Assembly (NCBI GenBank): GCA_965224025.1
Contig: OZ245033.1
Location: forward strand, 3,776,001-3,840,000
Direction of reading: 5' to 3'
DNA: 64,000 nucleotides
DNA from: Candidatus Multivorans sp.
Lineage (GTDB): Bacteria > Acidobacteriota > Thermoanaerobaculia > Multivoradales > Multivoraceae
A program made the position numbers and the translations under genes. Within the stretch, counting starts at the first letter, position 1; the number at the start of each line of letters is the position of its first letter. Of this stretch, positions 8,483-38,092 are shown piece by piece. The notes under the pieces are model-generated. The model saw nothing but the letters and a program-made list of their open reading frames with translations. It was not told the origin of the DNA and made no database searches.

Positions 8483-11242
8483 TCAGTTGCTGCACGCAAA
8501 CGCCTTGATAGCGCTCTTCGCCTCGGCAGTCCGGTTCAGGCGGTTCGCGTGCGTCCAGACCTCGCCATCCGGGGACTCGACCGTCAGGTTGAACGCCAGG
8601 CTTGTCATGGGCGCCACAAACACCCACCGGTGCTCGTTGAAGGCGCAGCCGTCAAGCACCTTGATCAACACCTCCGCGTTGTTCCGGTCGAAGAAATACA
8701 GGATGGCGGATTGCTCCGAGTCCAGCTCGTAGTCCTTCGCACCCACCACGACCGCCTCACCGTCCTTGAGGTACTCAACGCACATGCTCACGGTGTAGCC
8801 GCCGCTCAGGCGCAGGACCGGCTCCGGTTCGCAGGCCGTCGCTTCCCCGGCGGCGATCGGCTGGGCAACGGTCGCCGGCTGGAGCAAAAGCGCGGCCAGC
8901 GCCGACGAAGACACCGCCGAGAAGCCCGTGTTGACCAGGTCCACGTCGCGGACGCCATCGCCGCCGGCGGCCACGGCGACCGATGAAGTATCCGCGCCGC
9001 AGGGGAAAGCCTCCAGGTCGCTGTTCGTCGTCGCGGTGCCTCCGCCCCTGGGGTTGCGATGTGTCCAGCGCTTGCCGGTCGCCGTCTCGTCGACGTGCAG
9101 GTTGAAAGCCAGGGTCGTCACAGGCGCCACGAACACCCACCGGTGGCCATTCTCGGCGCAGGCGTCGAGCACCTTGATCAGGACCTCGGAATTGTCCCGA
9201 TCGAAGAAGTACAGAAGACCCGACTCGCGGGAGTCGAGACCATAGTCCAGAGCGTCCTTCTCCACGATCGGGCCCTCGCCGTTCTCCTGGTATTCGAAGC
9301 ACATGCTGACGGTGTACCCGTGGTCGAAGAAGATTTGCGGGGCCGAGGGCACGCAGTCCGAGTACTCCACGGCCGGCAGGACAATCGTCGCCGTGTTGCT
9401 GGGAGAGCAGCCACGAGCGTTGCAGGCGCGCACCCGGAACGTGTAATGGCCGCCCGGCACAAGTCCTGCCACGTCCGCGCTCTCGGTGTCGGCGGCGACC
9501 CTCCTCGACGTCCGCCAGCCGCCACCTCGAGGGCGGAACTGGACGTCGAAGCCGTCCTCGTCGTCCGAGTTGTCGACCCACTGCAGACGCACGCTCGTGT
9601 TGTCCACTGCCGCGGCCGTGAGTCCACTCGGAGCCGCCGGCTTCTTGGGCGCCGGCAGTTGGACAGTGACCCGCTCGCCGAACGAGATGTTGTTGGTCTC
9701 GTTGTTGTTGAATGCCCCGACGGAAAATTCGTAGCTGCGACCGGCGAGGAGTCGGGTCACGTGCTCTTCCTCGCTATCGGCGGGCAGCACCGAGAACCGC
9801 TCCCATTCGCCGTTGACGATCCGGCGCCAGACCTCGAAACCGGCCTCATTGTGCGCGTCGTCGACCCAGGTCAGATGCACGCTGCGACTGCTCGTCGCCC
9901 GCCCCTTGATGTCGACCGGCGGCCAGGGCGGCGGCGGTCCCAGTTCGGCCGGCACGTAGTCGCTGAGCCGGACCACGTCGTGAACCGTCTGCTGTACGGC
10001 CCGTTCGTTCTCCCGCTCGCCGGCCACGCCGATCGTCCAGCCGGCCGGCATATGCCGCACCGAAGAGAAGAACGGTTGCCATTCCGTATTCGTACCCACC
10101 CCATAGCTCATCAGCGTGGCGATGAAGGGAAACCGTGTCGAATCGGTGTGGCCGTAGGCGAACCGCGTCACCGCGGCCGCCGGATCGATGTTCGAATTCT
10201 CCGGATCGTGGTTGGCGCCGAGGTTGTGGCCAACCTCGTGGGCGAAGGTGTGGAGTGACCACTGGTAACCGCAATCCGTGGCGTTCGAGGTCCAGCCATA
10301 CCCATACTGCGCGAAGCTCTCCGCGGTGTCGCCTTTCAAGAGAACGTAGGCGCGTCCACAACCTCCGGCGGCTTCAAACGGCTCGGCGTGGAAGAGATGG
10401 ACCAGATCCGCCCGGTGCTGATGCCGCGCCCTCGCGGCCCGCCCGTTCCATTGCAGCTTCAGCAGCGTCGTTGCCGGAGTGCCCAGTTCGACAGGCGCCA
10501 CCTCCGAATGGACCAGGTTCGCCGTGATCGGGATCTCGCCATTCCGCAGCACCCTGTTCAGGTAATCGAAGGCGGCCTGAATCGCCGGCGCCGAGCCGCC
10601 GACGCTGCCCCAGTTCGCCAGCGCCCCGTTGGTGTAGAAGACGGCGATGTCCAAGCGGTCGTGACTCGATGCGCTTCCCACCCGCCCCGGACGGTTCGTC
10701 GACCTCCGTGGCCACGCCGGCCTCTCCAGATCCGAGGACGCCCCGCGGGCTGGCGGAACGACGGTGCCGGGGCAGTAGCCCGGGGGTGGTCCACCAGCGG
10801 GGGCCAGCCGCCCGCGACCGTCAGGCCGAGCCTGGAGATGGAACCTGGAGCCGCCCGGTTCCCCGAGCCACGCGATCAGGTAGCCGTCGTGCAGGGTGAG
10901 TTGAACGCCCTCGTAGTCCACGCCCGCTACGCGGCCGGTCCACATCACGTTCCCGTCGCCGCGATCTTCGAACATCGCGCGCTCCGCCACCACCGCCCGC
11001 CCGTCGGGCCGAGTCAGTACCAGCCGCTCGGGGCCGGAACGAATCAGGTCCAGGTCAACTTCTGCCGGCACCGCTCCGGCGCCCATCTGCGCGACGTAGG
11101 GCGCGAATTCGTCGGACACCGTCCGCGGCAGGGAGAGCAGGTCCTGTCCTTGCAGTGCCGCGGCGCCCCAGAGCGCCAAGACAGCCAGAGCAACTGCCCG
11201 GGGCAGCGATCCTACGCTGCCCGATGGGATCCTTCTCACCAA
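8483..11242 (-). CDS. Secreted M12/reprolysin-like zinc metalloprotease with FN3 repeats and duplicated C-terminal domain
   Basis: Signal peptide, HEVGHNLGANH, Met-turn TLMSY, two FN3 domains. Confidence 0.88.
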   Translation of the reverse strand: MVRRIPSGSVGSLPRAVALAVLALWGAAALQGQDLLSLPRTVSDEFAPYVAQMGAGAVPAEVDLDLIRSGPERLVLTRPDGRAVVAERAMFEDRGDGNVMWTGRVAGVDYEGVQLTLHDGYLIAWLGEPGGSRFHLQARPDGRGRLAPAGGPPPGYCPGTVVPPARGASSDLERPAWPRRSTNRPGRVGSASSHDRLDIAVFYTNGALANWGSVGGSAPAIQAAFDYLNRVLRNGEIPITANLVHSEVAPVELGTPATTLLKLQWNGRAARARHQHRADLVHLFHAEPFEAAGGCGRAYVLLKGDTAESFAQYGYGWTSNATDCGYQWSLHTFAHEVGHNLGANHDPENSNIDPAAAVTRFAYGHTDSTRFPFIATLMSYGVGTNTEWQPFFSSVRHMPAGWTIGVAGERENERAVQQTVHDVVRLSDYVPAELGPPPPWPPVDIKGRATSSRSVHLTWVDDAHNEAGFEVWRRIVNGEWERFSVLPADSEEEHVTRLLAGRSYEFSVGAFNNNETNNISFGERVTVQLPAPKKPAAPSGLTAAAVDNTSVRLQWVDNSDDEDGFDVQFRPRGGGWRTSRRVAADTESADVAGLVPGGHYTFRVRACNARGCSPSNTATIVLPAVEYSDCVPSAPQIFFDHGYTVSMCFEYQENGEGPIVEKDALDYGLDSRESGLLYFFDRDNSEVLIKVLDACAENGHRWVFVAPVTTLAFNLHVDETATGKRWTHRNPRGGGTATTNSDLEAFPCGADTSSVAVAAGGDGVRDVDLVNTGFSAVSSSALAALLLQPATVAQPIAAGEATACEPEPVLRLSGGYTVSMCVEYLKDGEAVVVGAKDYELDSEQSAILYFFDRNNAEVLIKVLDGCAFNEHRWVFVAPMTSLAFNLTVESPDGEVWTHANRLNRTAEAKSAIKAFACSN

Positions 11243-11353
11243 CGGTCTTCCCGGTCCTGCCCGCGTCCGCTTGGAGTCACTCTCACCAGAACCTCCGAAC
11301 TATAGTCGCAGAATCCTACAGCCTCCGCCTGCTCCGGAAGCGGCGACTACGGC

Positions 11354-14916: not shown

Positions 14917-17900
14917 CTAGAAAGCCTCGATGTCGATCTGGCCGCAGATGCTGCCCGGCTCGTTGCGGTAGGTCGAAACCCCACCGGTAATTGTATCCGT
15001 AGCCGTGACCTCGTACTCGACATCCGACAGGCCCCCGTACAGCAGCCAGAAGTGGCCGTTCAGGGCGCGGCCGTCCAGCATCTTCACTGCGAGCTCGATG
15101 TTGGAGGGGTTGAAGAACCAGAAGAAGCCCGTCTTCCCCATCGTGAGCGACGGAGTCACCTGGGCCGATTCCTCCAGGCCGGTGCCGGCGTTCGGATCGA
15201 CGAAGCCAACCTCGACAGAGAAGCGATCGCCCAGCAGGCACAGCCGATCTCCGGCTGTCTCGCACCGACCGCCGCCGTCACTCGAACGGCCAATGCCGCG
15301 CACGTCGAGCGCCACAGCGCTCATCGGCACGAGGTCGATCCCCGGTCCACCCGGACCCTCGCCACCCACGGCCCATCCCGTCGACGCCACGCTCGGATCG
15401 CCGAATGCATCGAGGTCCTTCTGCCCGCAGACGTCGCGCGGAGGGTTGTGGTACGTCTGACGTTCGCCCGTTTCGACATCTCTCACCGTGATCCAGTACT
15501 CGACGTCCGACAGTGCGCCGAAGAACACCCAGTAGCGGTCATTGAGCGCCCGGCCGTCCAGAACCTTGACCACCAACTCGATGTTCTCGGGTTCGAAGAA
15601 CCAGAACAGTCCGGACTCGTCCGAAACGTCCACCGGCACGGCGGTACTCGAACCGTACTCGCCAGCGCTGTCCGGCTTGCTCCAGTGTGCCCACACCTCG
15701 AAACGCCCGTCGCGCAAGCAGAGATACTCGGAACCCTCCCGGCAAGCACCCTCGAAGGCGCCGGTCGTCACACTGACCTCTTCGGAGTAGTCCGCCCGGC
15801 CGGCACGAAGCCGGAACGTGTAGGGCGTCTCCGCCTTCAGACCCGCGACAAGGGTGCTTCCGAGCGTCGGCGCGGCAGCCGCCACTTCGACCCAGCCGCT
15901 GGCCGGGTTGCGCGCCTCGATAGAGAGCGTGCCCCGAGCCGCCCGAGTCCACCTGCCCGTCCAGGACAGCTCCACCGAGGTTTCGCCGGATGGAATCGCC
16001 GTCAGCCGGCCGTCCTCCGCCGGCGGCGGGTCGGGGTCCTGAAACGGGTTCCCTCTGACCGTGTTGCTGCTCCGGGAGAAACCGGTCCCGTTGTAGGCAA
16101 AGACGCGGTAGTCGACTTCCTCGCCGCGATCCAAGTCGAACGACCTGGCGCCAGTGGGCGCCATCGCCACCCGGGTCCAGCGGCCGCCCCCGACGACGAC
16201 GGTGTCCTGAGCCTCGTAGTCGGGACGCGACTGAATCTCGAATCCCGTCTCGTCGCGCGAGTTGTCGTCCCAGGTGAGACGGGCAACGCCACCAGAGACA
16301 CCCCAGCGAAGCTTCGTCGGCGCGGCGGGACCTCGCCCGGCGGTCTCCAGCGGCAGGGCGACCCCGATGCGATCGCCAGGGCCCGCATCGTTGTACGGCC
16401 ACACATAGAAGACGTAGCTGCCGCCGCGCGCGAGCCCATCGATCTCGATCGACTCGCTGCCGGCTTCCGCCTCGAACAGACCGAACCAGCCCGAGACCAA
16501 GGCCAGGACCCGGAAGCCGCGTTCGTCGTCGGAGTTGTCGGTCCAGGTCAGACGAACCGACGAGGCGCTACCGGCACTCGCTGTCAGGTTCGTGACCGGC
16601 CTCGGTCCGGGCGCGGCGGGCGACAGGAGAGCCAATAACTCGCTGCTGCGGGAGATGCCCCCCGGACCAAGGGCATACACGCGCACCTGGTAGCGGCGGC
16701 CGGGCGCCAGCCGCGAGATCACGGTCGAATCCGCGTTCCCTGACACGTAACTGCGCCGCAATAGCTGCCCGTCAGACAGCAGTTGTACTTCGAACAAGTA
16801 GGCGTCGTCGTCCGAGTCGTCCACCCAAGTCACCCGCGCGCTGTTCGTTCCCATCCGGGCCGGATCCTCCACAGGCACCGGTTGCCACATGAGACCGGAC
16901 GGTGCCGCTGGCTCAGCGCCCGGAGTCACGAGTGTGACGATGCTTGAGCTCGCGGACTCGGTTTCGCCCCTTACCGCATTGACCCCGAAGAAGTACCGAG
17001 TACCGGCATCGGCCACGGGAAGGCCGACCACCGCGGTCGTGCGACCTTCCAACGGCCTCGTGGCCTCATCCTGTCCTGGACGCCAGAACGTCACCTCATA
17101 GCCATCCTCGTCGGTCGCGTTGTCCCGCCAGTTGAGCCGAACCGAGGTTTCGCTCTCCATCGCCACCCGCAGACTCGTCGGCGCCGCCGGCGCATCGGGC
17201 GGCAGCCGAGCGACCGAATCGCTGTAATGGACGCCGATGTGAATCGTCTCCTGCAGGGCGCGTTCGTTCTCGCGCTCGCCGGCGACACCGATGACCCGAC
17301 CCTGGGGCTTGACCCGGACACTCGAAAGGTACGGCTCGCCCTGGCCGGTGTAGCTCATGATCGTGCCGACGTTCGGAATGTGATCGTGATTGCCGTGACC
17401 GAAGGCATAAGGCCTGAACGCGAACACCGGAGGGGGGCCGTTTGCCGGGTCGTGGTGGGCGCCCAGACCGTGGCCCACTTCGTGGGCGAAGATCGGTCCG
17501 TCGCCCGAGCACGCGTTCGACGTCCAGCCGTAGGCCAGCTCCGAGAAGTCTTCGGCGGTCTGATCGCGACTAAGGACGTAGTGCTGGCCGCAGGCTTCGA
17601 ACAACCACGGAGACTCACCGGTGAACAGGTGGACCAGGTCGGCTCTGTGCTCTCTTCGCAGTCGGAGCGCTTCCCCGTGGAAGCCGAGCTGATCGATGAG
17701 CGAGGCGCCGTACAGACCACTCCCATTCCTACCCACCCGATCGATGCCGGAAATCTGGGCGCTATGAACGATGTTCTCGCTCACATCCACGCGGCCATTT
17801 CGCAGAACCATGTTCAGGTAGTCGCCGGCATTGCGAATCGCCGCTTGCGCGCCGCCGCGATTCGCCCAATTCCGCGCCGCCTCGGGGGTGTAGACGACAA

Positions 17901-18558
17901 CGATGTCGAGCGCGTCGTGATTCTGCGCGGCGCCCGCTCGCGTGGGCGGATCGTGGAGCAGCGCCCCAGCCATACGCACCGGAGCGACCGGTGGTTGCCG
18001 GTCGGCGCCGTTGCCTACCGCACAGAACGCCTCCGGCTCCCGACCCGGCAGAGCAAAGCCGGATTCCATTCGACCGACGCCGTCAGGACGGGCGCTGATC
18101 CGGTACCTCACCCCCCCGGGCTCATGGAACCAACCCACGAAGCGGCCACCTTCCAACGTGAGTACGACGCTGTCGTAGCCCGCGCCCGGTAGACCGCCGG
18201 ACCACATCAGGTCTCCGCCGCCGCGATCCTCGAACACGTTGAGCTCCGCGACCAGAACGCGGCCGTCCGGCGTCGGCAGCTCCAGCCGCGGTGACCCGCT
18301 GCGAAGCAGGTCCAGATCGACTTGCGCGGAGAACGAAGGGATAGCGAACGTCAGGTCCGGAGCGCCAGCGGATGCGGGCTGCGCCGCCTGCGCAACCAGA
18401 CTCAACAGACGTTGGCCCTGGACCGGCGCCGCAACCAGCATGATCGCCGTCATCGCCAGTAGACCCACTCGCGATGTACCCAAGAGATACTCATGGATGC
18501 CGGCGATCCGCCGCGCCGCGCTGCGCGACATCGAGAAACAAGACATGAGAGCCTCCAC
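14917..18558 (-). CDS. Secreted M12/reprolysin-like zinc metalloprotease with ~5 FN3 repeats and duplicated C-terminal domain (start uncertain)
   Basis: HEVGHGLGAHH, TIMSY, repeated WxDNSxDExGF; paralogue of 8483..11242. Confidence 0.88.
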   Translation of the reverse strand: MEALMSCFSMSRSAARRIAGIHEYLLGTSRVGLLAMTAIMLVAAPVQGQRLLSLVAQAAQPASAGAPDLTFAIPSFSAQVDLDLLRSGSPRLELPTPDGRVLVAELNVFEDRGGGDLMWSGGLPGAGYDSVVLTLEGGRFVGWFHEPGGVRYRISARPDGVGRMESGFALPGREPEAFCAVGNGADRQPPVAPVRMAGALLHDPPTRAGAAQNHDALDIVVVYTPEAARNWANRGGAQAAIRNAGDYLNMVLRNGRVDVSENIVHSAQISGIDRVGRNGSGLYGASLIDQLGFHGEALRLRREHRADLVHLFTGESPWLFEACGQHYVLSRDQTAEDFSELAYGWTSNACSGDGPIFAHEVGHGLGAHHDPANGPPPVFAFRPYAFGHGNHDHIPNVGTIMSYTGQGEPYLSSVRVKPQGRVIGVAGERENERALQETIHIGVHYSDSVARLPPDAPAAPTSLRVAMESETSVRLNWRDNATDEDGYEVTFWRPGQDEATRPLEGRTTAVVGLPVADAGTRYFFGVNAVRGETESASSSIVTLVTPGAEPAAPSGLMWQPVPVEDPARMGTNSARVTWVDDSDDDAYLFEVQLLSDGQLLRRSYVSGNADSTVISRLAPGRRYQVRVYALGPGGISRSSELLALLSPAAPGPRPVTNLTASAGSASSVRLTWTDNSDDERGFRVLALVSGWFGLFEAEAGSESIEIDGLARGGSYVFYVWPYNDAGPGDRIGVALPLETAGRGPAAPTKLRWGVSGGVARLTWDDNSRDETGFEIQSRPDYEAQDTVVVGGGRWTRVAMAPTGARSFDLDRGEEVDYRVFAYNGTGFSRSSNTVRGNPFQDPDPPPAEDGRLTAIPSGETSVELSWTGRWTRAARGTLSIEARNPASGWVEVAAAAPTLGSTLVAGLKAETPYTFRLRAGRADYSEEVSVTTGAFEGACREGSEYLCLRDGRFEVWAHWSKPDSAGEYGSSTAVPVDVSDESGLFWFFEPENIELVVKVLDGRALNDRYWVFFGALSDVEYWITVRDVETGERQTYHNPPRDVCGQKDLDAFGDPSVASTGWAVGGEGPGGPGIDLVPMSAVALDVRGIGRSSDGGGRCETAGDRLCLLGDRFSVEVGFVDPNAGTGLEESAQVTPSLTMGKTGFFWFFNPSNIELAVKMLDGRALNGHFWLLYGGLSDVEYEVTATDTITGGVSTYRNEPGSICGQIDIEAF

Positions 18559-25704: not shown

Positions 25705-25858
25705 GTCGACTCCATCGCCACGGTGTGACCCGCATCCGGCGCCGCGGCGGTCTCGTTGGGCGCGCGATCATAGCAGCGAAAGACGTTTCGTTGCCGAGCG
25801 CCCCGTGCCTGACTGCTACGCTGACACAACCACATCCTGACGACAAGGGAGGCCCACC

Positions 25859-27717
25859 GTGAACGAACTGGTCTACCGTTTCCTCCGCAACGATCTCTCT
25901 CGCCGCGGCTTCATCCAGGCCCTGACGGCGCTCGGTCTGACCGGCACGATTGCCGAGTCCACGGCGAACGCGGCGGCAGCCGCGGCGAACACCGACGCCG
26001 ACTCGGGCAGCCGCACAGCAGCCGGCACCGGCGGCGAGTTGATGGTCGAGCAGATGGCCGCGGCCGGCACCCGCTTCCTGTTCACGAACCCCGGCTCGTT
26101 CGAGGTCGGGTTCTTCGACGCCTTCCTCGACCGCCCGGGCATGCAGCTCATCATGGGGCTGCACGAAGGCATCGTCATCTCGATGGCCGACGGCTACCAC
26201 AAGGCCTCCGGCGAACCCGGCTTCGTCAACGTTCACGTCATCGCCGGTACCGCACAGTCCGCCGGTCAGCTCTACAACTCGAGCCGGGACGGCTCGGCGC
26301 TGATCGTCACCGCCGGCCTGCTCGACAACGAGATGCAGGACGACAACCTGCTGCTGGGGCCCAGGCCCGGCTTCGACCAGAAGGACGTGAACCGCCAATT
26401 CACGAAGATGTCCTGGGAGACCCGCGACCCCGGCTCGATCCCGGTCATGCTCCGCCGGGCCTTCAAAGTGGCGACGACTGCTCCCGGCGGCCCGACCTAC
26501 CTGGCCCTGGCCAACCACGCCCTGGAGGCCAAGGGAGTCAGCGCCGCGATCCACGACCGCGCGTCCTTCATCATCCCGGACGACATTCCGGCCCGCGACG
26601 AGGACATCGAGGCGGTGGCGCGGATGCTGATCGAGGCCGAGGCGCCGATCATCCACGTCGGCGACGAAGTCAGCAAGGCCGGGGCGCAGCCGGCGGCGCT
26701 CGAGCTGGCCGAACTCCTGCAGGTCCCGGTGGGCGACGTGAACTGCCGTTCCACAGCTTCCCGCGCATGCATCCGCTGTATGCCGGCGGCTACAGCAGCC
26801 GCGACCGCGACTTCGTCCTCCGCATCGGCGTCGGCGACATCGGCGGCACCGCCGCCGCCGGCCCTGACGCCGAGGGCTCGCAGAGCGCCTGGATCGGCCT
26901 GAACACGGGCGCGATCGGCGGCGACCGGCCCTTCGGCCGCGCGGTCGTCGCGAACACGAAGCTCGCAACCGAGGCCCTGGTGGAGGCGGTCGAATCGCTC
27001 ACCACCGAAGAGCGGCGGAAGAAGATCCGCGCGTCACGCCCGGAGGCCGCGCGCAAGCCACCCCAGCTCGACCGAGCGAACGTCGGCCGCAGCCCCATCC
27101 ACGCCGACGAGCTGGGCCATGTACTCGAGACGGAACTCGACCCGAACGCGATCATCGTCAGTGAGAACCTGAGCGGCTCGAACCAGTTCTTCTCCACCGG
27201 TCACCGCGACAACGAAAAGACCTGGCTCGCCACTTCCGGCGCCGGGCTCGGCTGGGGCATCGGCGCTTCGACCGGCGCCAAGCTCGGCCAGCCGGATCGC
27301 CAGGTCGTCTGCAACATCGGCGACGGCTCGGTGATGTACAGCGCCTCCGGCTTCTGGACCCAGGCCCGCTACGGAGTTCCGGTCCTGACGGTGGTCACCA
27401 ACAACCGGAACTACCAGACCGTCCGCCTCGCCTACGCCCGCTACGACGGCAAGATGAAGGAGGCGAACCGCTACACCGGCATGCACCTCGGCGATCCCGA
27501 CATCGACTTCGCCGGCCTCGCCCGAAGCCAGGGCGTCGACGGCGTGACCGTCGAGTCGGCGGCAGACATCCGCCCAGCGATCCGCCGCGGCATCGAGGCC
27601 ACCCGCGCCGGCGAACCCTTCCTCGTCGACGCGGTCGTCGACCGCAAGGGCGACGGCGGCGACTCGACCTGGCACCAGGAGTTCCGGCTTGCCGACGAAC
27701 GGACGAAGTCGGTGTAA
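25859..27717 (+). pseudogene. TPP-dependent enzyme (benzoylformate decarboxylase/acetolactate synthase-like) with Tat-like leader; frameshift near 26740
   Basis: SRRGF leader, NPGSFE, LHEG, GDGSVMY...NN; halves in two frames (true pseudogene or sequence error). Confidence 0.8.
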
Positions 27718-28476
27718 CGGTCCGCGGACCGCCGTACTTCTACTCTGCCTCGGCGCCCGCCTGACCGGGCGGGCCGGCGCCTGGAACCTCGGCCTGCTGA
27801 CCGTGGGGACCGAGGCTGTTGCGGCGGGGAATCGGCCCGCGGCAGCCGCCGCCCAGCACAGTGTCGTCCGCCTCAAACGCGATCTCGGGCACCGTTCCAG
27901 TGTCGGCATGATCTACACCGAACGCGATCCGCGCGGCGGTGAACAGAACCGGCTCTACGGCGGCGATCTCGACTACAAGCCGACCCGCCAGTCCACCTTC
28001 TACCTGTTCGGGGCCGCCAGCGAAGATCAGGGGCGGAGCGGAGACACAGGCGCTCTCGGCACCGGGTACAGCTACACATCGCGCAGCCTGCGCGCGAACG
28101 TCGATCTGATGGAGTCCCAGGCCGAGTTCAGTCCCGGCTCCGGTTTTCTCCTGCGTCGCGACTTCCGCCGCTACAATCCGAGGGTGCGCTGGGAACCGCG
28201 GATCAACCGCGGCGGCGTCCGCAGCCTGACGCTGGAGGCTCAACTCGACTCCGGCTCGATGCCGCCTTCAGCCCGGACCTTCGCCTCAATACGCTCGCGC
28301 AGTACAACGACGCGGCGGAGCTGGCCGGCATCAACGTGCGTTTCAACTGGATCTACAAACCCGGCGCCAATCTCTTCGTCGTCTACAACCACAACTGGGA
28401 AGCCCCGACCTTCACCGCCCGGGAAACGGCGCGCCGCGAACTGATCGTCAAGTTCAACTACCTCTGGCAGCCTTGA
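27713..28476 (+). pseudogene. Collapsed outer-membrane beta-barrel (DUF5916-like) remnant
   Basis: Signal-like TAVLLLCL joined to GARLTGRAG..., then a frame change into C-terminal NVRFNWIYKPG...LIVKFNYLWQP*. Confidence 0.65.
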
Positions 28477-28514: not shown

Positions 28515-28755
28515 ACGGTCGCTCGCTGCAACGGCACTGTCACTGCAGGTCTGGCCGCTCGTAGCGGTGCTTCTTGGGTCGCCCGACGAGTCGGTCAGAG
28601 CCAGGTCGAGACATAGCCAGCCGAACCCGCGGGGAAAAGGCGCGCTCTCGGCAGCTCGCACTCGATCCGCACAAGGTCAGAATGATAGCCTTCCTGCCCG
28701 GCGCCAGCATCGTGCTGAGCAGTGAGATTCGCGCCGTAGACCTCGCCTGCCCTCG
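28515..28755 (+). pseudogene. Remnant copy 0 of the CxC repeat domain
   Basis: ATALSLQVWPL and HKVRMIAFLPGASIVLSSEIRAVDLACP match the downstream copies. Confidence 0.65.
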
Positions 28756-28801
28756 AACGTGGAACGGTGACGGTCAACCTTGGCTGCCCCAGCTCCGGCA
28801 G

Positions 28802-30646
28802 ATGAACCGAGCCGTTTCCACACCTCGCGGACCACACCCGCTAGCCGTATGGGCGGCGGTTGCCGGCCTGTCGATCGCCCTCTCAGCGTTCGCTCCACGG
28901 AACGCTCAAGCGTGTAGCTGCGTAGACCCCGAACACTGGGGGTTCATCGGTCCCGAGAACGGGCGGCTGCCCGCCAATGCGGCCGGTGTGGTGTGGTTCA
29001 AGCCCAGGGTGTTCGACAGGCGATACGAACTCCAGCAACCTCCTTCCGGGCGGCGGGTCGCTGCGCGGATCAGGGTCGAGCAACGGGTGCAGAATCGGTT
29101 CGTGCGTGTGCCGGCGACCGCTCGGAGCGTCGACGGATTCCGGGGGATCTTCGTCGTCGCGCCGCGGGAAGGACTCGCTGTCGCGGCCACGTATCGATTC
29201 ACGGATCGAGGGTCGACTCTGCACGACGACCATCCGGAATGGGCGGACTCGCGACGTTTCTTGGGCAACGGGCCCCACCGTCAAGTTCAGGTCACCGTGG
29301 ACGCGGACCCACTCCCCGCGAACTCCTCGCTCGCTCTGAAGGCCGGACCCGCGGCTGCGGAGTTGATCAGCGTGGCCTCAGGGGGCGGCATGTGCTCAGT
29401 CCGCGGACAGCCTGTTCCACACGTTTCGATCGAGGCCGGACTGGCTCCAGAGGTTCGGGAGTGGCGCGGGCAGCTTCTCTTTCGAACCCTCGTTGACGAT
29501 GAACCCTGGGCAGGCGCCGAGTCTCTCTGCTCGCTTTACCCAAGCGGACGGAGTTGGCGCCAAATCGCGACCGACAAGGTGTACAGCACGTGCCAGGACC
29601 TCGATGCACGCGGTGAGGCCCCGATCGCCTTCCGCGAACCGAGAGGCCGGTTCCGTGAGCTGGCGCCTACCAAACACAGCGTGAAGATGAAGGCCTTTCT
29701 GCCCGGAACGGACATCGTGCTGGAGAGCGAAGCCCTGACAGTCGACCTGAGTTGCCCTCGGGCGGCTGTAGCGACGTGGATCGACGCTGCCTGGTTCGGC
29801 ATGGGTGCCAGCCATCAACTATGCGAGTGTCCCGGCCCGCTCTACACGACGGGGTTCATCGGTCCAGCAGACGTGCGGCTGCCAGCCAACGCCGCCGGCG
29901 TGCTCTGGCTCCAAGCAACGGAGTGGCAGAGCGCCGAATCGGACAGACCGGATCCCCAGGAAGTGGTCAGATCACGCATCTCCGTGAGAATGCTGGGCAA
30001 GCAAGGCGAGGGCGTCGCGTTGGCGACCATCGCCAAGGCTGTGCCAGACACTTCAGGAGTGTTCGTCGTCGCCCCCGAGGGCGGATTCGTGCCCGGTGCA
30101 CGGTACTTCTTCGTCGACCGCGAACACAACGGTGAATGGTGGCGACCGGGGAACGACCCCTGGGACCTCCGAAAGGGCGTCATCGCGACGATCGACAACC
30201 TGGAGCTTTCCGTCGAAACAACGCTCACCCTGCACAGCACGCCGACAATCGTTGGGACGCTCCGTATTGCTTCAACCTTTCGGTGCGGCAACGTGGAACG
30301 CTTGCCGCACGTTCAGATCGAAGCGCGGCTCGGGGGGAACGGCCAACGGTGGCGGAATCAACTGCTGTATCGAACGTTCGTCGATGGCGAAGGCTGGTAC
30401 GGGGCCAGCAGCACGTGCGCGGGAGAACTACATGTGCTTGGGGCCGCCGGGGCCACTGTAGGCCATGACGTTCTCTACGGCCGGTGCCCAGGAGAGAAGT
30501 CGCCCGAGGACGTCTACTATTGGTTCCCCCCGCTCGAGCCGGCTGCGCACCAAGTCAAGATGCAGGCGTTCCTTCCCGGCACCGACATCGTGCTCGAGAC
30601 CAAGACGGTAACGGTGGACCTGAGCTGCCCCGCGACTGACGAGTGA
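28802..30646 (+). CDS. Secreted hypothetical protein with two tandem six-Cys CxC domains
   Basis: Signal peptide ending AQA-CSC; two ~290-aa repeats (GFIGP..RLPANAAGV, LxRTxVD, AFLPGTDIVLE..VDLSCP). Confidence 0.8.
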   Translation: MNRAVSTPRGPHPLAVWAAVAGLSIALSAFAPRNAQACSCVDPEHWGFIGPENGRLPANAAGVVWFKPRVFDRRYELQQPPSGRRVAARIRVEQRVQNRFVRVPATARSVDGFRGIFVVAPREGLAVAATYRFTDRGSTLHDDHPEWADSRRFLGNGPHRQVQVTVDADPLPANSSLALKAGPAAAELISVASGGGMCSVRGQPVPHVSIEAGLAPEVREWRGQLLFRTLVDDEPWAGAESLCSLYPSGRSWRQIATDKVYSTCQDLDARGEAPIAFREPRGRFRELAPTKHSVKMKAFLPGTDIVLESEALTVDLSCPRAAVATWIDAAWFGMGASHQLCECPGPLYTTGFIGPADVRLPANAAGVLWLQATEWQSAESDRPDPQEVVRSRISVRMLGKQGEGVALATIAKAVPDTSGVFVVAPEGGFVPGARYFFVDREHNGEWWRPGNDPWDLRKGVIATIDNLELSVETTLTLHSTPTIVGTLRIASTFRCGNVERLPHVQIEARLGGNGQRWRNQLLYRTFVDGEGWYGASSTCAGELHVLGAAGATVGHDVLYGRCPGEKSPEDVYYWFPPLEPAAHQVKMQAFLPGTDIVLETKTVTVDLSCPATDE

Positions 30647-31544
30647 GCGAAGCGGCTCCCTACCGAAGAGCGCCTGGTCGCCTCTGCGTATGGACCGCCG
30701 CAGCAGGGCTGTCAATCGCTCTCTTCACAATCGCCGCTCCGGCGGCCAATGCCTGCCTGTGCAAGCAACTGGAAGACTGGGGCTTCCTTGCGCCGCAAAC
30801 CGGGCGCTTACCGGTCAACGCCGCTGGCGTCGCGCGGTACATGCCCGGCGAGTCCCTTTCCGGGGAGGAGATCCTGGCCCAAGTCTCGGTAGAGGCAAAG
30901 CAGGATGGCGTCTTTCAGGAAGTGCCGGCAACAGCAAGGGGCGTTCCAGGCTTCCCGGGCATCTTCGCCATCGGGCCCAAGGGCGGCTTGAAGGCCGGAG
31001 CGACCTACCGCTTCACAGACCGCAGGGATTGACGGCACGGAGTTCCCGCACAGGTGCTCGCGACGATCGACAGCGCCTCGTTGGCGCCGGCAACGCCGCT
31101 AGTCCTGGAGGTCTGGCCGCTCTACTCCGAGACGATCCCGGTGGCTTCCGGCGGCGGGATGTGTTGGGTGGCGCATGGGTCGCCCAGGCGCTGATCGAAA
31201 CCACTCTGCCCGAAGGCGCCGCCCTATGGCGGGATCAACTCCTGTACCGAACGTTGGTCGACGGTGAGGCGTGGTACGGCAAGGAGTCTCTCTGCGACAA
31301 CTACGCGCCGGGACGAAGCTGGAAGGAGATCGGCGAGGACCTTGTCTACGGCGCGTGTCCTGACCCGTCCGGCGCCAGCCACGGTGACGAGGGGTACGCC
31401 TACGGAGAAAACCGGCGCCCACGCCAACTCGAACCCACCCTCCATACCGTCAAGATGCAGGCATTTCTGCCCGGCACCGACATCGTGCTGGAGACGGAGG
31501 CGCTCACCGTGGACCTGAGTTGTCCCGGTCCCGTGGAGGAGTAG
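30643..31544 (+). pseudogene. Further CxC domain gene with in-frame TGA (31030-31032) and a frameshift near 31170
   Basis: ANA-CLC start; homology continues in frame after the TGA, then shifts frame to reach AFLPGTDIVLETEALTVDLSCP. Confidence 0.75.
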
Positions 31545-31657: not shown

Positions 31658-34600
31658 ATGGGACGTAGACTCGCGGTCATGAGACGTCTACTCCGCTGCC
31701 CCAGTCCTTCGTTCAAGCTCGCTGGCACCCTGCCCAACCGGTTCCCCGAACCGGCTCGCCGCCTGTGCGTGCTTCTACCAGCCCTTGCCTCGTTCCTGGT
31801 CGCCCTCGCCGCCGCCCCGGCCCCGGCCGTCGCCGACGACGACGAGGCGAAGTGGGACGTGAACGACCCTCCCGGCGACGAGTACGAGTTCGAGCTCGAT
31901 GTGACCGAGGGCACCTGGATGAGTCTCGATCTGTCACCGGACGGCGAGCGGATCGCATTCGACCTGCTCGGCGACCTCTACCTGCTGCCGATCGGCGGCG
32001 GCGACGCGGAAGCACTGACGAACGGAATGGCGTGGGACATGATGCCCCGCTTCAGCCCGGACGGCTCCGACATCGCCTTCATCAGCGATCGTAGCGGCGG
32101 CGACAACGTCTGGACGATTCCCGCGGACGGCGGCGAGCCGAAGCAGGTCAGCCGTGAGGACTTCCGCCTGGTCAACAACCCGGTGTGGAGCCCCGACGGG
32201 CGTTTTGTCGCCGCCCGGAAGCACTTCGTCTCGACCCGCTCCCTCGGCAGCGGCGAGATCTGGCTCTACCATGCGAGCGGCGAGGGAGGCGGCCTGCAGT
32301 TGAACGAGAAGCCGAACGATCAGAAAGACTTGGGCGAACCTGCCTTTTCGCCCGATGGGCGATATGTCTACTTCAGCCAGGACACGACGCCTGGCGGCAC
32401 GTTCCAGTACGGCAAGAACTCGGCCGAGGGCATCTACTCCATCCGTCGCATCGACCGGGAGACCGGCGAGATCGAGACGGTGATCTCGGGGCCCGGCGGC
32501 GCCGTGAGGCCGACACCGTCGCCGGACGGGAAATACCTCGCCTTCGTGCGCCGGGTGCGCTTCCAGAGCCATCTGTTCCTGCACGATCTGCAAAGCGGAG
32601 AGAACGTCCCCATCTACGATGCTCTCGACCGCGACATGCAGGAGATCTGGGCGGTTCACGGCGTGTACTCCAGCATGGCCTGGACGCCGGATAGCCGATC
32701 GATCGTCTTCTGGGCCCGCGGCGGCCTGCACCGGATCGACATCGAGAGCCGGGAGGCTCAGGAGATTCCCTTCCGCGTCCGCGCGACCCACCGGATGAAG
32801 GAAGCGCTCGCCTTCGACTTCGAAGCGGCGCCGGAGACCTTCCGGACGAAGATGCTGCGCTGGACCCAGGTCTCCCCCGCCGGCGACCAGGTCATCTTCC
32901 AGACCCTGGGCCGGCTGTGGACGCGCAGCCGCAACCCGGCAACGGGCGAGGTCGGCGAGGCCCGGCGGCTAACCACCCAGGACGATCACTTCGAGTTCTT
33001 CCCGTCCTGGTCCCGCGACGGGAAATGGGTCGTCTATGTGAGCTGGCACGACGAGGACGTCGGCGCGGTCCGGATCGCGCCCGCTTCCGGCGGCGAGGGA
33101 CGGAAGCTCACGCCCGATCCCGGCTTCTACGTCGAACCGGTCTTCTCGCCGGACGGCGGCACGGTCGTCTACCGCAAGAGCCGCGGCGGCGGCATCCTGA
33201 GTCCGTTGTGGTCGAAGGATCCGGGGCTCTACCGAATCCATGCCGGCGGTGAGAGCGCACCAGTGCGCATATCCCGGTCCGGCTCCAGCCCGCACTTCGG
33301 CGCCGACTCGAGCCGCGTCTACTTCACCGCCCCGGAGCGCTGGGACCGGCAGGTACTCCGCAGCGTGCCACTGATGAGTGCCGGCGAAGCAGAGGTGCGC
33401 GATCATGTCGGCAGCAAGGTCGCCACCGAGATGCGGGTCAGCCCCGACGGCCGCTGGCTCGCGTTCGCCGAACGGTTCGATGCCCACGTCGTGCCTTTTG
33501 TGCCCGCCTCGAAGGCGATCGAGGTTGGACCGAGCACGCCCGGACTACCGGTTCGGAACGTCTCCACCGACGACGCCGCCTACCTGCATTTCTCGGGCGA
33601 CAGCTCGACGCTCTACTGGTCACTGGGGCCGGAGTTGTTCGAGAGGCGACTCGCGGACGCCTTTGCGCTCGCGGACGACGAGGATGAAGAGGACGGCGAA
33701 GGCAAGGACGGCGAAGAAGAGGACGGCGAAGGCAACGAGGCGGACAACTCCAGCGACGGGCAGGACGAGCCTGCCGCCGGCCTCGACCTCGGCTTCGAGG
33801 TGGACGCCTACCGTCCAGATGGCGTGACCGCGATCACGAACGCCCGCCTGATCACGATGGCCGGCGAGGACAACATGGAGATCATTCGCCGCGGCACCGT
33901 CATCGTCGACGGCGACCGGATCGCCGCAGTAGGCCCGTCCCGGCAGGTCGACGTGCCGGACGGCGCGACGGTCATCGACGCCTCGGGCCTGACCGTCATG
34001 CCCGGCCTGATCGACGTCCACTGGCACGGGCCGCAGGGCAGCCAGGAGATCATCCCGCAGCAGAACTCGGAGCTCTACGCCTCGCTCACCTTCGGCGTGA
34101 CAACGGCTCACGACCCCTCGACCGACACCAGCACCTTCTTCGCCGCCAGCGAGATGCAGCGCGCCGGCGAGATCGTGGGACCCCGGCTGTTCGCCACCGG
34201 CACGATCCTCTACGGCGCCTTCGGCGCCTTCCGCGCCATTGTCGAGACGCCGGACGACGCGGTCCAGCACCTGCGCCGGTTGCAGAAGGTCGGCGCCGTC
34301 AGCGTCAAGAGCTACAACCAACCGCGCCGCGACCAGCGCCAGAAGATCGTCGCCGCGGCGCAGGATCTCGGCATGCTGGTCGTCAATGAAGGCGGCGCCC
34401 TCTTCCAGCACAACATGACGATGGTCGCCGACGGCCACACCGGCATCGAGCACTCGCTCTCGGTGGGCGCGATCTACGACGACGTGATCCAGTTCTGGGG
34501 CAGCAGCCGGGTCGGCAACACCCCCACCCTCGGCGTCGCCTACGGCGGCATCCAGGGCGAGGACTACTGGTACGAGCACACCGACGTCTGGGCCAACGAA

Positions 34601-35062
34601 CGGCTGCTGAACTATGTACCGCGGGAAGAGATCGATGCCCGCTCCCGCCGCCGGCAGAAGGCGCCGGACGGCGAGTACAACCACATCCTGACCGCTCGCG
34701 TGGTGAACGACCTCGACCAGGCCGGCGTACCGATCATGCTCGGCGCCCACGGCCAGCGCGAGGGCCTCGCCGCCCACTGGGAGATGTGGATGTTCGAGCA
34801 GGGCGGGATGAGCCCGCACCGGGCACTGATTGCCGGGACGATCAACGGCGCCCGCTACCTCGGCATGGAGGCCGACCTCGGCTCCCTCGAAGCCGGCAAG
34901 CTCGCCGACCTGATCGTCCTCGAGCAGAACCCGCTCGAGAACCTGCGAAGCTCGGAACTCGTCCGCTACGTCATGGTCGGCGGCCGGTTGTTCGACGCCC
35001 TGTCGATGAACGAGATCGCGGGCGAGAAGCGGCAGCGCAAGCCGTTCTGGTTCCAGCGGTAG
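31658..35062 (+). CDS. Secreted TolB/PD40-propeller plus amidohydrolase fusion protein (start uncertain)
   Basis: Repeated PxFSPDG, PGLIDVHWH, GSLEAGKLADL. Confidence 0.9.
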   Translation: MGRRLAVMRRLLRCPSPSFKLAGTLPNRFPEPARRLCVLLPALASFLVALAAAPAPAVADDDEAKWDVNDPPGDEYEFELDVTEGTWMSLDLSPDGERIAFDLLGDLYLLPIGGGDAEALTNGMAWDMMPRFSPDGSDIAFISDRSGGDNVWTIPADGGEPKQVSREDFRLVNNPVWSPDGRFVAARKHFVSTRSLGSGEIWLYHASGEGGGLQLNEKPNDQKDLGEPAFSPDGRYVYFSQDTTPGGTFQYGKNSAEGIYSIRRIDRETGEIETVISGPGGAVRPTPSPDGKYLAFVRRVRFQSHLFLHDLQSGENVPIYDALDRDMQEIWAVHGVYSSMAWTPDSRSIVFWARGGLHRIDIESREAQEIPFRVRATHRMKEALAFDFEAAPETFRTKMLRWTQVSPAGDQVIFQTLGRLWTRSRNPATGEVGEARRLTTQDDHFEFFPSWSRDGKWVVYVSWHDEDVGAVRIAPASGGEGRKLTPDPGFYVEPVFSPDGGTVVYRKSRGGGILSPLWSKDPGLYRIHAGGESAPVRISRSGSSPHFGADSSRVYFTAPERWDRQVLRSVPLMSAGEAEVRDHVGSKVATEMRVSPDGRWLAFAERFDAHVVPFVPASKAIEVGPSTPGLPVRNVSTDDAAYLHFSGDSSTLYWSLGPELFERRLADAFALADDEDEEDGEGKDGEEEDGEGNEADNSSDGQDEPAAGLDLGFEVDAYRPDGVTAITNARLITMAGEDNMEIIRRGTVIVDGDRIAAVGPSRQVDVPDGATVIDASGLTVMPGLIDVHWHGPQGSQEIIPQQNSELYASLTFGVTTAHDPSTDTSTFFAASEMQRAGEIVGPRLFATGTILYGAFGAFRAIVETPDDAVQHLRRLQKVGAVSVKSYNQPRRDQRQKIVAAAQDLGMLVVNEGGALFQHNMTMVADGHTGIEHSLSVGAIYDDVIQFWGSSRVGNTPTLGVAYGGIQGEDYWYEHTDVWANERLLNYVPREEIDARSRRRQKAPDGEYNHILTARVVNDLDQAGVPIMLGAHGQREGLAAHWEMWMFEQGGMSPHRALIAGTINGARYLGMEADLGSLEAGKLADLIVLEQNPLENLRSSELVRYVMVGGRLFDALSMNEIAGEKRQRKPFWFQR

Positions 35063-35603: not shown

Positions 35604-36245
35604 CTAAGGCTGAGCGTCTCCCAGCGCCTCGAGGGCAGCTAGCCAGCCGTCGAACCGAGTGCACTCGCCACGGATGGTCTCCAAGCCGATCTTGCGAGCG
35701 ATGCGCGGACCGTGAACTGCTTTCTGGTAACGGGCCAGGGCCTTCTTGATTCGCTTGCTCGGCGCAGTGGCGGCGCTGTCGTTGATGTCCTCGGGCGAAG
35801 CGAATCGAGCGCGGGCGTCAAGAAGCTCGGCTACGGCGGCCTCCTGCGCAGCGGGCACGGACCTGAACGCCTCAGGGCGCGAGAACAGCAGTCCCTCAAA
35901 CTCGTGGAGTTGCACGTACGGGATGACGCACCGTGCTCGCGGACCGAGCTCTCCTCGAAGCTCCTCGCGCAAATCCGCGACCAACTCGTCCGCCGTCCGG
36001 TCCCGTTTACCGCGAAACCCGTAGAAGTCGACCAGCGATGTCACGGCATCGAAGTTGTGTGACAGGAGCCTCATTTCGGCGATCAGCGCCGATTCGGAAA
36101 CGTTGCCGCCCTTCCATCGGTTGCGGGCGCTACCCACCTGAACCGGCGTCACGTCCACGCCAAACGGCTTGAGGTGCTCCTTGAGAACGTCCTTGGCGAA
36201 CTCTTCCTCAGTCTGTCCCTCTACCGAGATCGCGAGCCGGATCAA
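35604..36245 (-). CDS. DUF4276-like (TOPRIM-fold-like) protein
   Basis: VEGQTEEEF, LVDFYG, HEFEGLLFS, PEDIND, TAPSKRI; TTGA overlap with the ATPase stop. Confidence 0.85.
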   Translation of the reverse strand: MIRLAISVEGQTEEEFAKDVLKEHLKPFGVDVTPVQVGSARNRWKGGNVSESALIAEMRLLSHNFDAVTSLVDFYGFRGKRDRTADELVADLREELRGELGPRARCVIPYVQLHEFEGLLFSRPEAFRSVPAAQEAAVAELLDARARFASPEDINDSAATAPSKRIKKALARYQKAVHGPRIARKIGLETIRGECTRFDGWLAALEALGDAQP

Positions 36246-37375
36246 GGGCGGCCGCCGAGGAGGTTCTTCTGCCACAGCTCACCGGGCGTGAAGTCCTCGT
36301 CGAGCCAGACTCGGTAGTCGTCCGAAGACAACTTGCGAACCTCCGTTCGGCCTTCGCGCAGTTCCAGGACGAAGATCTCCTCGAGATCGAAGGCGTCCAC
36401 GAGCAGGGGTGACTGAGTGGCCAGGATGACCTGTCGCTCTTCCGCCAAGGACCTGATCATCCCGCCCAGGAGAGTGATCGCCGCGGGATGAAGCCCCAGT
36501 TCCGGCTCGTCGAAGAGCAGCACGTTCGGCAGCATCTCGGCCGGCAGATTCAGTAAGGCGACGAGAGCAAAGAACCGCAAAGAGCCATCGGATGTCAGGT
36601 GCGCCCCGAACGTCTTGTCCGCTCCCCTGGCCTTCCACCGCAAAGCCACGCTCCCGTAGCTCTCGTGAAGCTCGAAGTGGTCGAAGCCGGGAAGGATGCG
36701 GCCGATCTGCTCGCAGATCAACTCGTAGCGGTCGAGATCCTCCCGCTCCAGCCGGAGGAGGACCGCGGCGAGGTTGCCGCCGTGGGAGCGAAGGTAGTTG
36801 TTGTCAGTCGCGTCCCACTCCTTCTTGAAGTTCGACTCGTCCGAGGTGTCGTGGAACTGATAGACCGCGCAGCCGCGTAGAAGATGAACGATGACCCGGG
36901 CAGTCCTTTCATTGACGCCCGGGTAGGAACCGGATTGGGCCGCGCGAACGATCTCAGCCTCTCGATTGCCGTTCTCGAGATACTGCCAAGGCGCCTCGCT
37001 CGCCACGTCGCCGCTGCTGAACCGGAAGCCCTCCTCGGAGAAGAAGAGACGGTCGCCTTGGGCGTAGCTGAGCGCGAAACGGTAGTCGTTCCTTCCCGCC
37101 TCCGTCCGAAGCGACAGCTCGGCCTTCATGCGCGGAGTCGTCCGATTGCCTCCGTACAGTTGATCGTCGGCACGGCCGTGCTTCTCGACGAACGCGCCGA
37201 GCCGGCGAGGTCCGAGCATCCAACTCAGCATCTCGAAGAAGCGAATGAAGTTCGACTTGCCGGCACCGTTGGCGCCGATCAGAACCGCCGCTCCGGGCAG
37301 ACCGCGGAGTTCGACATCGGCCAGCGAACGGAAGCCGCGCACTTGAACGCGTTCGATCGGAGCGCCAGCGGCCAT
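36242..37375 (-). CDS. ABC-type AAA ATPase (AAA_21-like)
   Basis: GFRSL, GANGAGKSN, SDGSLR, DEPELGLHP, ATQSP. Confidence 0.92.
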   Translation of the reverse strand: MAAGAPIERVQVRGFRSLADVELRGLPGAAVLIGANGAGKSNFIRFFEMLSWMLGPRRLGAFVEKHGRADDQLYGGNRTTPRMKAELSLRTEAGRNDYRFALSYAQGDRLFFSEEGFRFSSGDVASEAPWQYLENGNREAEIVRAAQSGSYPGVNERTARVIVHLLRGCAVYQFHDTSDESNFKKEWDATDNNYLRSHGGNLAAVLLRLEREDLDRYELICEQIGRILPGFDHFELHESYGSVALRWKARGADKTFGAHLTSDGSLRFFALVALLNLPAEMLPNVLLFDEPELGLHPAAITLLGGMIRSLAEERQVILATQSPLLVDAFDLEEIFVLELREGRTEVRKLSSDDYRVWLDEDFTPGELWQKNLLGGRP

Positions 37376-37696
37376 CAGACGGTGCTCTCTTTCAACTCTA
37401 CAGAGGCTTCTTCAAGCCCCGGACCTTCTCGATGGTCTTGCGCACCGATTCCAGATCGCTCAAGGCCGCGCTCCGGTGTGAAGTGAGGATGATCAACGGA
37501 AGCGGAGAGTATCAAGGCGAAGTTCAGAGGCTTCGCTTCGGCCCACGACAGGATTGCCTCCGGCATCTCACGGATTGCGGGTGCTCATTCCGTGGAACGG
37601 CTCTCGGCGCCGGGATCGAGTGGCCTACTCGTACCGCCTCGAGGTTTGAACCACTCCCGCGCATCCTCTTGGGGGCAAGCGCTCAGGCGGCTTCAT
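37375..37696 (-). pseudogene. HEPN-domain toxin remnant
   Basis: MKPPERLPP / EDAREWF / ATRxPG-like / AILSWAE fragments in shifting frames after the MNT gene. Confidence 0.6.
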
Positions 37697-37997
37697 ACAC
37701 GATCCGTCCCTCGGCCAACGCCGGCTTGTAGACCAAGCCGAGACTGTCCTTGTAGCGCTCCAGGTCCGTGGGCGTAACGAGAATCGCATCGACAGGCACG
37801 CCCACACCTGCCAGCCGCTCGTACACCTGAGCCGCAACGTCTGACCGATCTCCGCCTTCGGCAACGACGAGAAGGTCTACATCGCTCTGCGGGCCATCGT
37901 CACCGCGAGCCGCCGAACCGAACAGGATGACCTTCTCAGGCTCTGCCACGTCGACTACGCGACGGATGATCTCGTCGAGCTCTTCCTGATCGACCAC
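37683..37997 (-). CDS. Minimal nucleotidyltransferase (MNT antitoxin)
   Basis: VILFGSAARG...SDVDLLVV. Confidence 0.9.
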   Translation of the reverse strand: MVDQEELDEIIRRVVDVAEPEKVILFGSAARGDDGPQSDVDLLVVAEGGDRSDVAAQVYERLAGVGVPVDAILVTPTDLERYKDSLGLVYKPALAEGRIVYEAA

Positions 37998-38092
37998 TTC
38001 CAGCGTCTCCCTCGCGAAGCCTACGCCGCTTCAAGACCACGGCTCGACTGCCCTTTCGGACAAGGAACCCGGGCTGCGCGTCGCGGCCCGCT

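Follow-up and report, generated by a model that had tools for sequence, protein, structure and literature searches.

The tandem array and its copies

The locus described here raises the question of what is encoded by a tandem array of secreted six-cysteine domains in Candidatus Multivorans sp. (contig OZ245033.1, positions 3,776,001 to 3,840,000; this whole stretch of 64,000 nucleotides, with a GC content of about 0.67, is referred to as the window). A preliminary description of the array had proposed a diversifying family of secreted metalloprotease inhibitors or metal binders, by analogy with the free N-terminal Cys-X-Cys (CxC) of TIMPs, possibly partnering two proteases encoded upstream. 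The explanation that we favour, and to which we give about an even chance of being right, is that the locus is a tandem array in decay, made up of paralogues that diverged long ago, and that its product is a Sec-exported, rigid, extracellular and non-enzymatic binding module. The array lies on the plus strand at 28528-31544 and consists of one remnant and three copies of a domain of approximately 280 residues with six cysteines, arranged as follows.

28528..28757, plus strand: copy 0, collapsed remnant of a copy-3-like paralogue (middle fragment and C-terminal motif)
28802..28912, plus strand: signal peptide of the copy 1-copy 2 protein (ATG at 28802; ends NAQA; predicted cut before Cys1)
28913..29761, plus strand: copy 1 mature domain, 283 aa (CSC start, six Cys, two beta-sandwich domains as modelled)
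29762..29821, plus strand: hydrophobic linker of 20 residues that joins copies 1 and 2 and derives from a degenerate signal peptide (AAVATWIDAAWFGMGASHQL)
29822..30646, plus strand: copy 2 domain (internal CEC at 29822; stop codon 30644-30646)
30643..31544, plus strand: copy 3 pseudogene (GTG start overlapping the copy 2 stop as GTGA, 30643-30646)

A regular-expression search of the six-frame translation found exactly four matches to the C-terminal motif HxVxMxAFLPGxxIVLxxxxxxVDLxCP in the window, all on the plus strand (28670-28753, 29675-29758, 30548-30631 and 31443-31526), the same four that had been reported before. The open reading frame (ORF) in frame 2 spans 28574-30646 and begins with the tail of the dead copy 0 (HKVRMIAFLPGASIVLSSEIRAVDLACP, 28670-28753). 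The C-terminal motif region of copy 0 covers approximately 28640-28757, and a middle fragment at 28528-28560, which sits in another frame, is 79% identical to copy 3 at 31090-31122. Because this middle fragment is kept alongside the C-terminal motif, copy 0 is identified as a collapsed copy. Copy 1 extends from Cys1 of CSC at 28913 to a closing LSCP that ends at 29758, and copy 2 follows in frame with no stop between them. Both are intact within one ORF of 614 open codons in which every conserved residue is present; the linker that joins them has no AxA site and is conserved in other two-domain proteins. In copy 3 the signal peptide ends in ANA and is followed by CLC at 30754, and the gene carries two lesions, an in-frame TGA at 31030-31032 (CGA in the related locus L001) and, as compared with the L001 orthologue, a frameshifting loss of 1 bp near 31174/31175. 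The earlier account of a collapsed copy 0, a disrupted copy 3, signal peptides directly before CSC and CLC in copies 1 and 3, and a copy 2 fused in frame through CEC was therefore accurate. In this genome only the fused copy 1-copy 2 protein would still be producible, copies 0 and 3 being dead.

The three long copies all contain six Cys together with the GF..P...LPxNAAGV and QLLxRTxVD motifs previously ascribed to them, and their mature domains are 42% (copies 1 and 2), 52% (copies 1 and 3) and 41% (copies 2 and 3) identical. At 41-52% identity they are old paralogues rather than fresh duplicates. This shared architecture is far beyond chance, and it recurs in 39 database proteins and 1134 profile matches. 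A promoter and terminator scan gave no promoter-like sites, and terminator-like sites at chance level.

A widespread family absent from curated libraries

A word-indexed search with copy 1 returned these 39 homologues, all unnamed or annotated as 'hypothetical', and the few titled proteins among them came from Acidobacteria or Holophagales metagenome-assembled genomes (MAGs). An exhaustive search with a profile built from an alignment of 29 sequences, the kind of distribution search that the preliminary description had advised, detected 1134, 808 and 160 representative clusters at E<=1e-3, E<=1e-10 and E<=1e-30, respectively. A genome scan with one peptide pattern, which samples only the nearer subfamilies, located 20 loci (designated by L numbers) in Candidatus Multivorans, other Acidobacteriota, Alpha- and Gammaproteobacteria, Nitrospinaceae, Chloroflexi and Myxococcota MAGs.

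Curated libraries did not contain the domain. No Pfam match was obtained for the window copies or, at E<=1, for 29 close members, and 87 of 90 distant members were also without a Pfam family; the remaining three showed a TPR tail, an FGE-sulfatase tail and one marginal match. NCBIfam held no model of the domain for the 40 members scanned or the window copies, PADLOC matched none of the four family ORFs, and nothing relevant was found in the PDB by sequence search (only alpha-crystallin, E 0.36) or by profile search (eIF4E-3, E 0.09). A weak match to DUF7152 (E 0.023) was not repeated in the 29 members and was rejected. Atlas neighbours were 'hypothetical protein' clusters, commonest in Myxococcota and Bacteroidota, and the nearest named neighbours were Big_5 clusters with scores of 0.80-0.81, which serve as a lead only. 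We found no description of the family in the literature searched, and a search on TIMP-like bacterial inhibitors gave nothing relevant, as judged from its listing.

As judged from sequence comparison, this is a large, widespread and uncurated family, and the domain deserves the label 'unrecognised' that it had been given. More than 1000 clusters at 50% identity lack a model in the Pfam, NCBIfam and PADLOC libraries searched and have no close solved structure. A definition of the family would give an annotation to many proteins now listed as 'hypothetical' in Acidobacteriota, Myxococcota and other phyla.

Export and the predicted signal peptide cleavage site

Cleavage was predicted by the -3/-1 rule, not by SignalP, and the statistics cover the 143 of 179 sequences that have CxC near the start. 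The residue at -1 to Cys1 was A, G or S in 141/143 and the residue at -3 was small or aliphatic in 142/143, so that predicted cleavage directly precedes Cys1 in at least 141 of these sequences. Position 2, after Cys1, was Ser in 115 and Thr in nine. This pattern predicts a signal peptidase I site that exposes Cys1. In the window, copies 1 and 3 have a predicted mature start at Cys-X-Cys (AQA/CSC and ANA/CLC), as had been stated before; copy 2 and the eight fused second domains described below do not. Placement of Cys-Ser-Cys exactly at the signal peptidase cut is unusually constant for an exported protein.

An invariant Cys right after the signal peptide, with A, G or S at -1, would also be expected of a lipoprotein, in which Cys1 is acylated after a signal peptidase II cut and anchors the protein in the membrane. 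However, the lipobox core was fitted by only 18/143 members, the residue at -2 was often H, R, Q, E or D, and position -3 is A rather than L. Many distant members, moreover, already have a C-terminal MYXO-CTERM anchor. We regard lipidation of Cys1 as extremely unlikely.

The distant members in question end in GC-hydrophobic-RRR tails of the MYXO-CTERM type. Among 40 members scanned, P0151 (21.8 bits) and P0057 (22.2 bits) exceeded the cut-off of TIGR03901 (MYXO-CTERM), and four more fell just short of it. Other members have add-on tails of MORN repeats, TPR or an FGE-sulfatase domain, and the window copies end shortly after SCP, without a MYXO-CTERM tail. The signal peptides, together with the MYXO-CTERM and other tails, point to a periplasmic or cell-surface site of action.

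Predicted fold

AlphaFold2 modelled mature copy 1 as two all-beta domains (pTM 0.79, mean pLDDT 78), and Foldseek against the PDB matched this model to tandem Ig/fn3 proteins only (EpoR, growth hormone receptor and Fab light chains; TM 0.2-0.3). Domain 2 alone, modelled with 104 aligned sequences, reached pLDDT 89 and pTM 0.84. Its Foldseek search gave no PDB match at E<=1e-3, the best rows being fn3 or Ig domains at TM<=0.37. We take the unit to comprise two predicted beta-sandwich (Ig/fn3-like) domains, an assignment that holds at the level of fold class only, with TM values no higher than 0.37. The family alignment contained no conserved catalytic-looking residues beyond Cys, Gly, Pro and Trp.

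The fold comparison suggested in the preliminary description thus yielded beta-sandwiches with Ig/fn3 matches only, and it does not support kinship with TIMPs: two beta-sandwiches are predicted instead of an OB barrel, and there was no Pfam or PDB sequence match to TIMP or NTR.

Proposed cysteine pairing and the fused two-domain proteins

The cysteines of copy 1 are C1, C3, C161, C206, C227 and C281, and all six Cys columns are filled in 110/130 aligned rows. The eight rows without C3 are all without C206 as well, and they gain Cys at about +6 and at about position 100, at the end of domain 1. This co-loss suggests the disulfides C1-C161, C3-C206 and C227-C281. Given the pairing of C1 with C161 and of C3 with C206, the N-terminus of domain 1 would be stapled to two loops of domain 2.

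Evidence on the role of the N-terminal motif came from proteins in which the domain is duplicated. A search for longer relatives identified, with the window protein, five other two-domain proteins (613-653 aa, 64-69% identity), and these six plus P0007 and the L001 protein provided eight second domains. CxC and the six Cys were kept in all eight. The internal CxC is preceded by a conserved linker whose last residue is H, Y, F, P or L, and signal peptidase could not cleave such a site. The internal motif was CEC in 6/8 second domains and CSC in the other two, and it was CSC in all six of the first domains that were present. Since CxC is kept without a free N-terminus, a structural role is favoured, and the need for a free N-terminal CxC assumed in the TIMP analogy is not supported. 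The replacement of Ser by Glu in the internal domains is compatible with an additional role for the free N-terminus of the first domain.

In the mechanism that we favour, signal peptidase I would cut after A-x-A, so that the mature chain would begin at Cys1 of a unit of about 280 residues, modelled as two beta-sandwich domains. The C1-C161 and C3-C206 bonds would fasten the Cys-Ser-Cys start of domain 1 to two domain 2 loops, and C227-C281 would close the conserved C-terminal hairpin (H.V.M.A.LPGT...VDL.CP). The outcome would be a rigid, protease-resistant, non-enzymatic module in the periplasm or on the cell surface, which may bind a ligand, probably a protein.

Several points weigh against this mechanism. 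'Binding module' is in part the default for a non-enzymatic Ig-like fold, and no partner gene emerged from the 20 related loci. The disulfide map reflects co-loss in eight sequences from a single subfamily, possibly the outcome of only a few independent events, and C1, C3, C161 and C206 all lie in low-confidence segments of the copy 1 model. Finally, a pure staple leaves unexplained that Cys1 is near-invariant at the cleavage site and is followed by Ser or Thr in 124/143 sequences, a hint that the free N-terminus may matter.

A free N-terminus is central to the alternative of a convergent TIMP-like inhibitor. The alpha-amine and carbonyl of Cys1, held by two disulfides, would chelate the zinc of a metzincin, and Ser2 would enter the S1' pocket; the targets would be the M12 proteases of the window or foreign metzincins, and surface anchoring in Myxococcota would serve self-protection. 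According to two papers (PMC3779175; PMC4860685), TIMP-2 starts with Cys1-Ser2-Cys3, binds zinc through the amine and carbonyl of Cys1, places Ser2 in S1' and has its N-terminal segment disulfide-linked to two loops. The predicted mature Cys-Ser-Cys start and the putative two-loop disulfide tie of the present family would match this arrangement, and the predominance of CEC in internal domains against CSC in first domains would be expected if only a free N-terminus were so constrained. However, the TIMP N-domain is an OB barrel (PMC3779175) rather than a beta-sandwich. The family has no sequence similarity to TIMP or NTR, and all eight fused second domains keep every feature without a free N-terminus. 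The resemblance to TIMP looks like one limited to the first three residues. We consider an inhibitor of this kind, acting through the first or a stand-alone domain, unlikely.

The same cysteines could instead form a metal site, in which C1, C3, C161 and C206, possibly with the N-terminal amine, would provide a periplasmic thiolate site for Cu, Zn or Ni. In line with this, the four residues lie where the model is of low confidence, as though a component were absent, and His255 and Met259 of the H.V.M strand are conserved in 83% and 63% of rows, respectively. A weak Atlas lead connects the family to a Big_5 cluster (score 0.80) of which 26% also carry CopC, and Foldseek returned a non-significant row for the copper protein CrdA (E 0.11). 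Every one of these leads is below significance, however, and the Cys are lost and replaced in pairs, as disulfides are. The location is extracellular and oxidising, and no metal-handling neighbours were present in the 20 loci. A metal-binding protein is, in our view, very unlikely.

The M12 proteases of the window

The two reprolysin-like proteases that the preliminary description had placed upstream of the array are present on the opposite strand.

8483..11299, minus strand: reprolysin-like M12 protease with fn3 (HEVGHNLGANHD)
14917..18558, minus strand: second reprolysin-like M12 protease with fn3 repeats

Both carry HExxHxxGxxH, and M12-fn3 relatives are abundant in related genomes (179 matches at E<=1e-10). 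The presence of two secreted M12 proteases in the window and the abundance of their family are in favour of the TIMP-like inhibitor. However, the two genes are 10-20 kb from the array, and between them and the array lie genes for SHMT, an enoyl-CoA hydratase, an MFS transporter, an SPFH protein, ribosomal protein L28 and a thiamine diphosphate (ThDP)-dependent enzyme, several of them housekeeping genes. A profile of the M12 catalytic domain matched both window genes and found none in the 20 related loci, with flanks of approximately 10 kb. The proposed partnership with the array is thus not supported. When mature copy 1 was co-folded with Zn and the catalytic domain (residues 205-450) of the M12 protease encoded at 8483-11299, the complex scored 0.03, with the mark at 0.32, a result that we counted neither way. 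There was no recurrent partner gene among the 87 and 83 flanking ORFs of the 20 loci, in which neighbours were not conserved. It is improbable, in our estimate, that the family is a bacterial, convergently evolved counterpart of TIMP on an Ig-like scaffold, with a stapled Cys-Ser-Cys start that plugs the zinc site of metzincins, widespread (over 1000 clusters), surface-anchored in Myxococcota and arrayed in M12-fn3-rich Acidobacteriota.

Both proteases also combine their fn3 repeats with a duplicated, Cys-containing C-terminal domain (...FWFF..N.EL.VKVLDG...), and there may be several members of the M12-fn3 family per genome.

Turnover and decay of the array

Two of the related loci allowed the history of the array to be followed in closely related genomes, with the aid of the genes on either side of it.

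27689..28476, plus strand: C-terminal remains of a DUF5916/CBM9 protein, broken by frameshifting (L002 encodes an intact protein of 762 aa)
31658..35062, plus strand: PD40 repeat/amidohydrolase protein (syntenic in L001 and L002)

In L002, flanking DNA is 85-90% identical to the window and the gene order is the same (SPFH, L28, ThDP enzyme, DUF5916/CBM9, family gene, PD40/amidohydrolase, DUF4276, AAA_21); the syntenic site holds a single family copy, with only 67% DNA identity to copy 1. With 87-91% identity to the window, L001 contains the three-copy array, but each copy is damaged differently: copy 1 is without its signal peptide and CxC, copy 2 carries a frameshift as well as an internal deletion, and copy 3 has Cys1 replaced by Phe plus a 1-bp deletion. 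These different lesions in all three L001 copies, and the single copy in L002, bear out the birth-and-death turnover that had been suggested from the window. The locus documents such turnover of paralogues between closely related genomes.

Ratios of nonsynonymous to synonymous divergence (dN/dS) between the window and L001, calculated with our own Nei-Gojobori script, were 0.42 for copy 1 and 0.21 and 0.70 for two parts of copy 2, as compared with 0.19 for the flanking PD40 gene. This indicates an array under relaxed constraint rather than demonstrated positive selection; positive selection was rejected because every dN/dS is below 1. The earlier term 'diversifying' is therefore not supported, as values of 0.21-0.70 fit relaxed and not positive selection.

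A tree of 18 rows placed copy 1 with L002 and L004, and the copy-3 type with a Holophagales protein, at a support of 100/98 each; therefore the paralogues predate these lineages. This tree omits L003, L009, L012 and L016, which are split or partial, and the window copy 3 is represented by copy 3 of L001. Horizontal transfer is not required by the tree, in which Acidobacteriota were grouped (87/87). Copies split over two frames were also present in L003 (2457-4108) and L009 (9941-10872), and L015 (1-2166) contains three family copies, one of them on the opposite strand. Arrays and broken copies are thus not confined to the window.

Damage extends to the genes upstream of the array. The ThDP-dependent enzyme is split into two overlapping ORFs on the plus strand (25841-26902 and 26767-27717), and its L002 orthologue is intact (619 aa); either a frameshift or an assembly error accounts for the split. 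The DUF5916/CBM9 remnant lacks two stretches of approximately 1050 and 390 bp relative to L002. The frameshifts upstream of the array lie at about 26.8 kb and about 28.3 kb; neither the large deletions nor the TGA at 31030 in copy 3 is likely to result from faulty assembly. Counting these two genes with copies 0 and 3, four in a row are damaged. Synonymous divergence from L001 is lower in the array (dS 0.09-0.18; 29045-30535) than in the adjacent PD40 gene (0.44), and the GC content at third codon positions (GC3) is 0.74 in the array as compared with 0.83-0.91 in neighbouring genes. A recent exchange of this segment might account for the low dS and GC3, as might a different codon usage.

It might be argued that the whole array, the copy 1-copy 2 gene included, is a non-functional relic in this genome. 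This would be consistent with the four disrupted genes in a row between 25.8 and 31.5 kb, with breakage of all three copies in L001, with raised dN/dS values of 0.42 and 0.70 against 0.19 in the flanking gene, and with the divergent GC3. However, the copy 1-copy 2 ORF is open over 614 codons and lacks none of the conserved residues, five other clusters (64-69% identity) have kept the fused form, and dN/dS is below 1 throughout. We judge it quite improbable that the array is entirely a relic; decay of copies around one intact fused gene is the reading that we prefer.

Other neighbouring genes

Several further genes were observed near members of the family. An FGE-sulfatase (SUMF1-like) gene adjoins the family gene in L020 (6748-7926) and lies 2.6 kb from it in L013 (3173-5401), and the two domains are fused in P0173. 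FGE-sulfatase domains are abundant in these phyla, and the cases were too few to weigh this protein as a partner. In L013 the family gene is also surrounded by caspase-like, papain-like, M23 and trypsin-like genes. In three loci belonging to different phyla, large ankyrin-repeat proteins are encoded a few kb or less from the family gene (L005, 11367-12881; L007, 9936-11837; L008, 4635-6542). The family gene of L005 and L009 is bordered by transposase or integrase genes.

Downstream of the PD40 gene in the window, a DUF4276 protein and an AAA_21 ATPase (35604-37411, minus strand) matched the PADLOC models HEC-01B (E 4e-60) and HEC-01A (E 2e-114), which make up a candidate defence pair; this HEC-01-like pair is syntenic in L002. 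A small nucleotidyltransferase (NTP_transf_2/Polbeta; 37683-38030, minus strand) adjoins the pair and may be of the toxin-antitoxin type.

Comparison with known systems

Bacterial Ig-like or fn3-like modules of the Big_5 type are, like the present family, exported and built on a beta-sandwich, which is modelled here. They differ from it in that the family has a fixed pattern of six Cys with CxC at the cleavage site, and no match to a Pfam Ig family. With the surface proteins of Myxococcota it shares the MYXO-CTERM tail, which is found on distant members and is absent from the window copies.

Among bacterial protease inhibitors, the periplasmic serralysin inhibitors of the AprI/Inh type are single beta-barrels of approximately 100 aa that are encoded beside their protease. 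AprI/Inh-type inhibitors and the Ig-like chagasin are small exported proteins that block proteases through an N-terminal segment or through loops of a beta-fold. Unlike the serralysin inhibitors, the present family has no linked M12 protease in the 20 loci and no sequence match.

Compared with TIMPs, the family is bacterial, extends over about 280 aa in two predicted beta-sandwiches instead of a five-stranded OB barrel and has CxC in internal domains as well; it has no sequence similarity to TIMPs, and inhibition is for this family only a candidate function. What the two have in common is that both are secreted, with a signal peptide followed immediately by Cys-Ser/Thr-Cys. In TIMP-2 the N-terminus is tied to two distant loops (PMC3779175), and the loss of Cys in pairs suggests a similar tie here. 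If the N-terminus of this family is functional, it would represent a second, independent invention of the TIMP mechanism; if it is not, the family would neatly illustrate how two Ig-like domains can be locked to each other by a disulfide staple.

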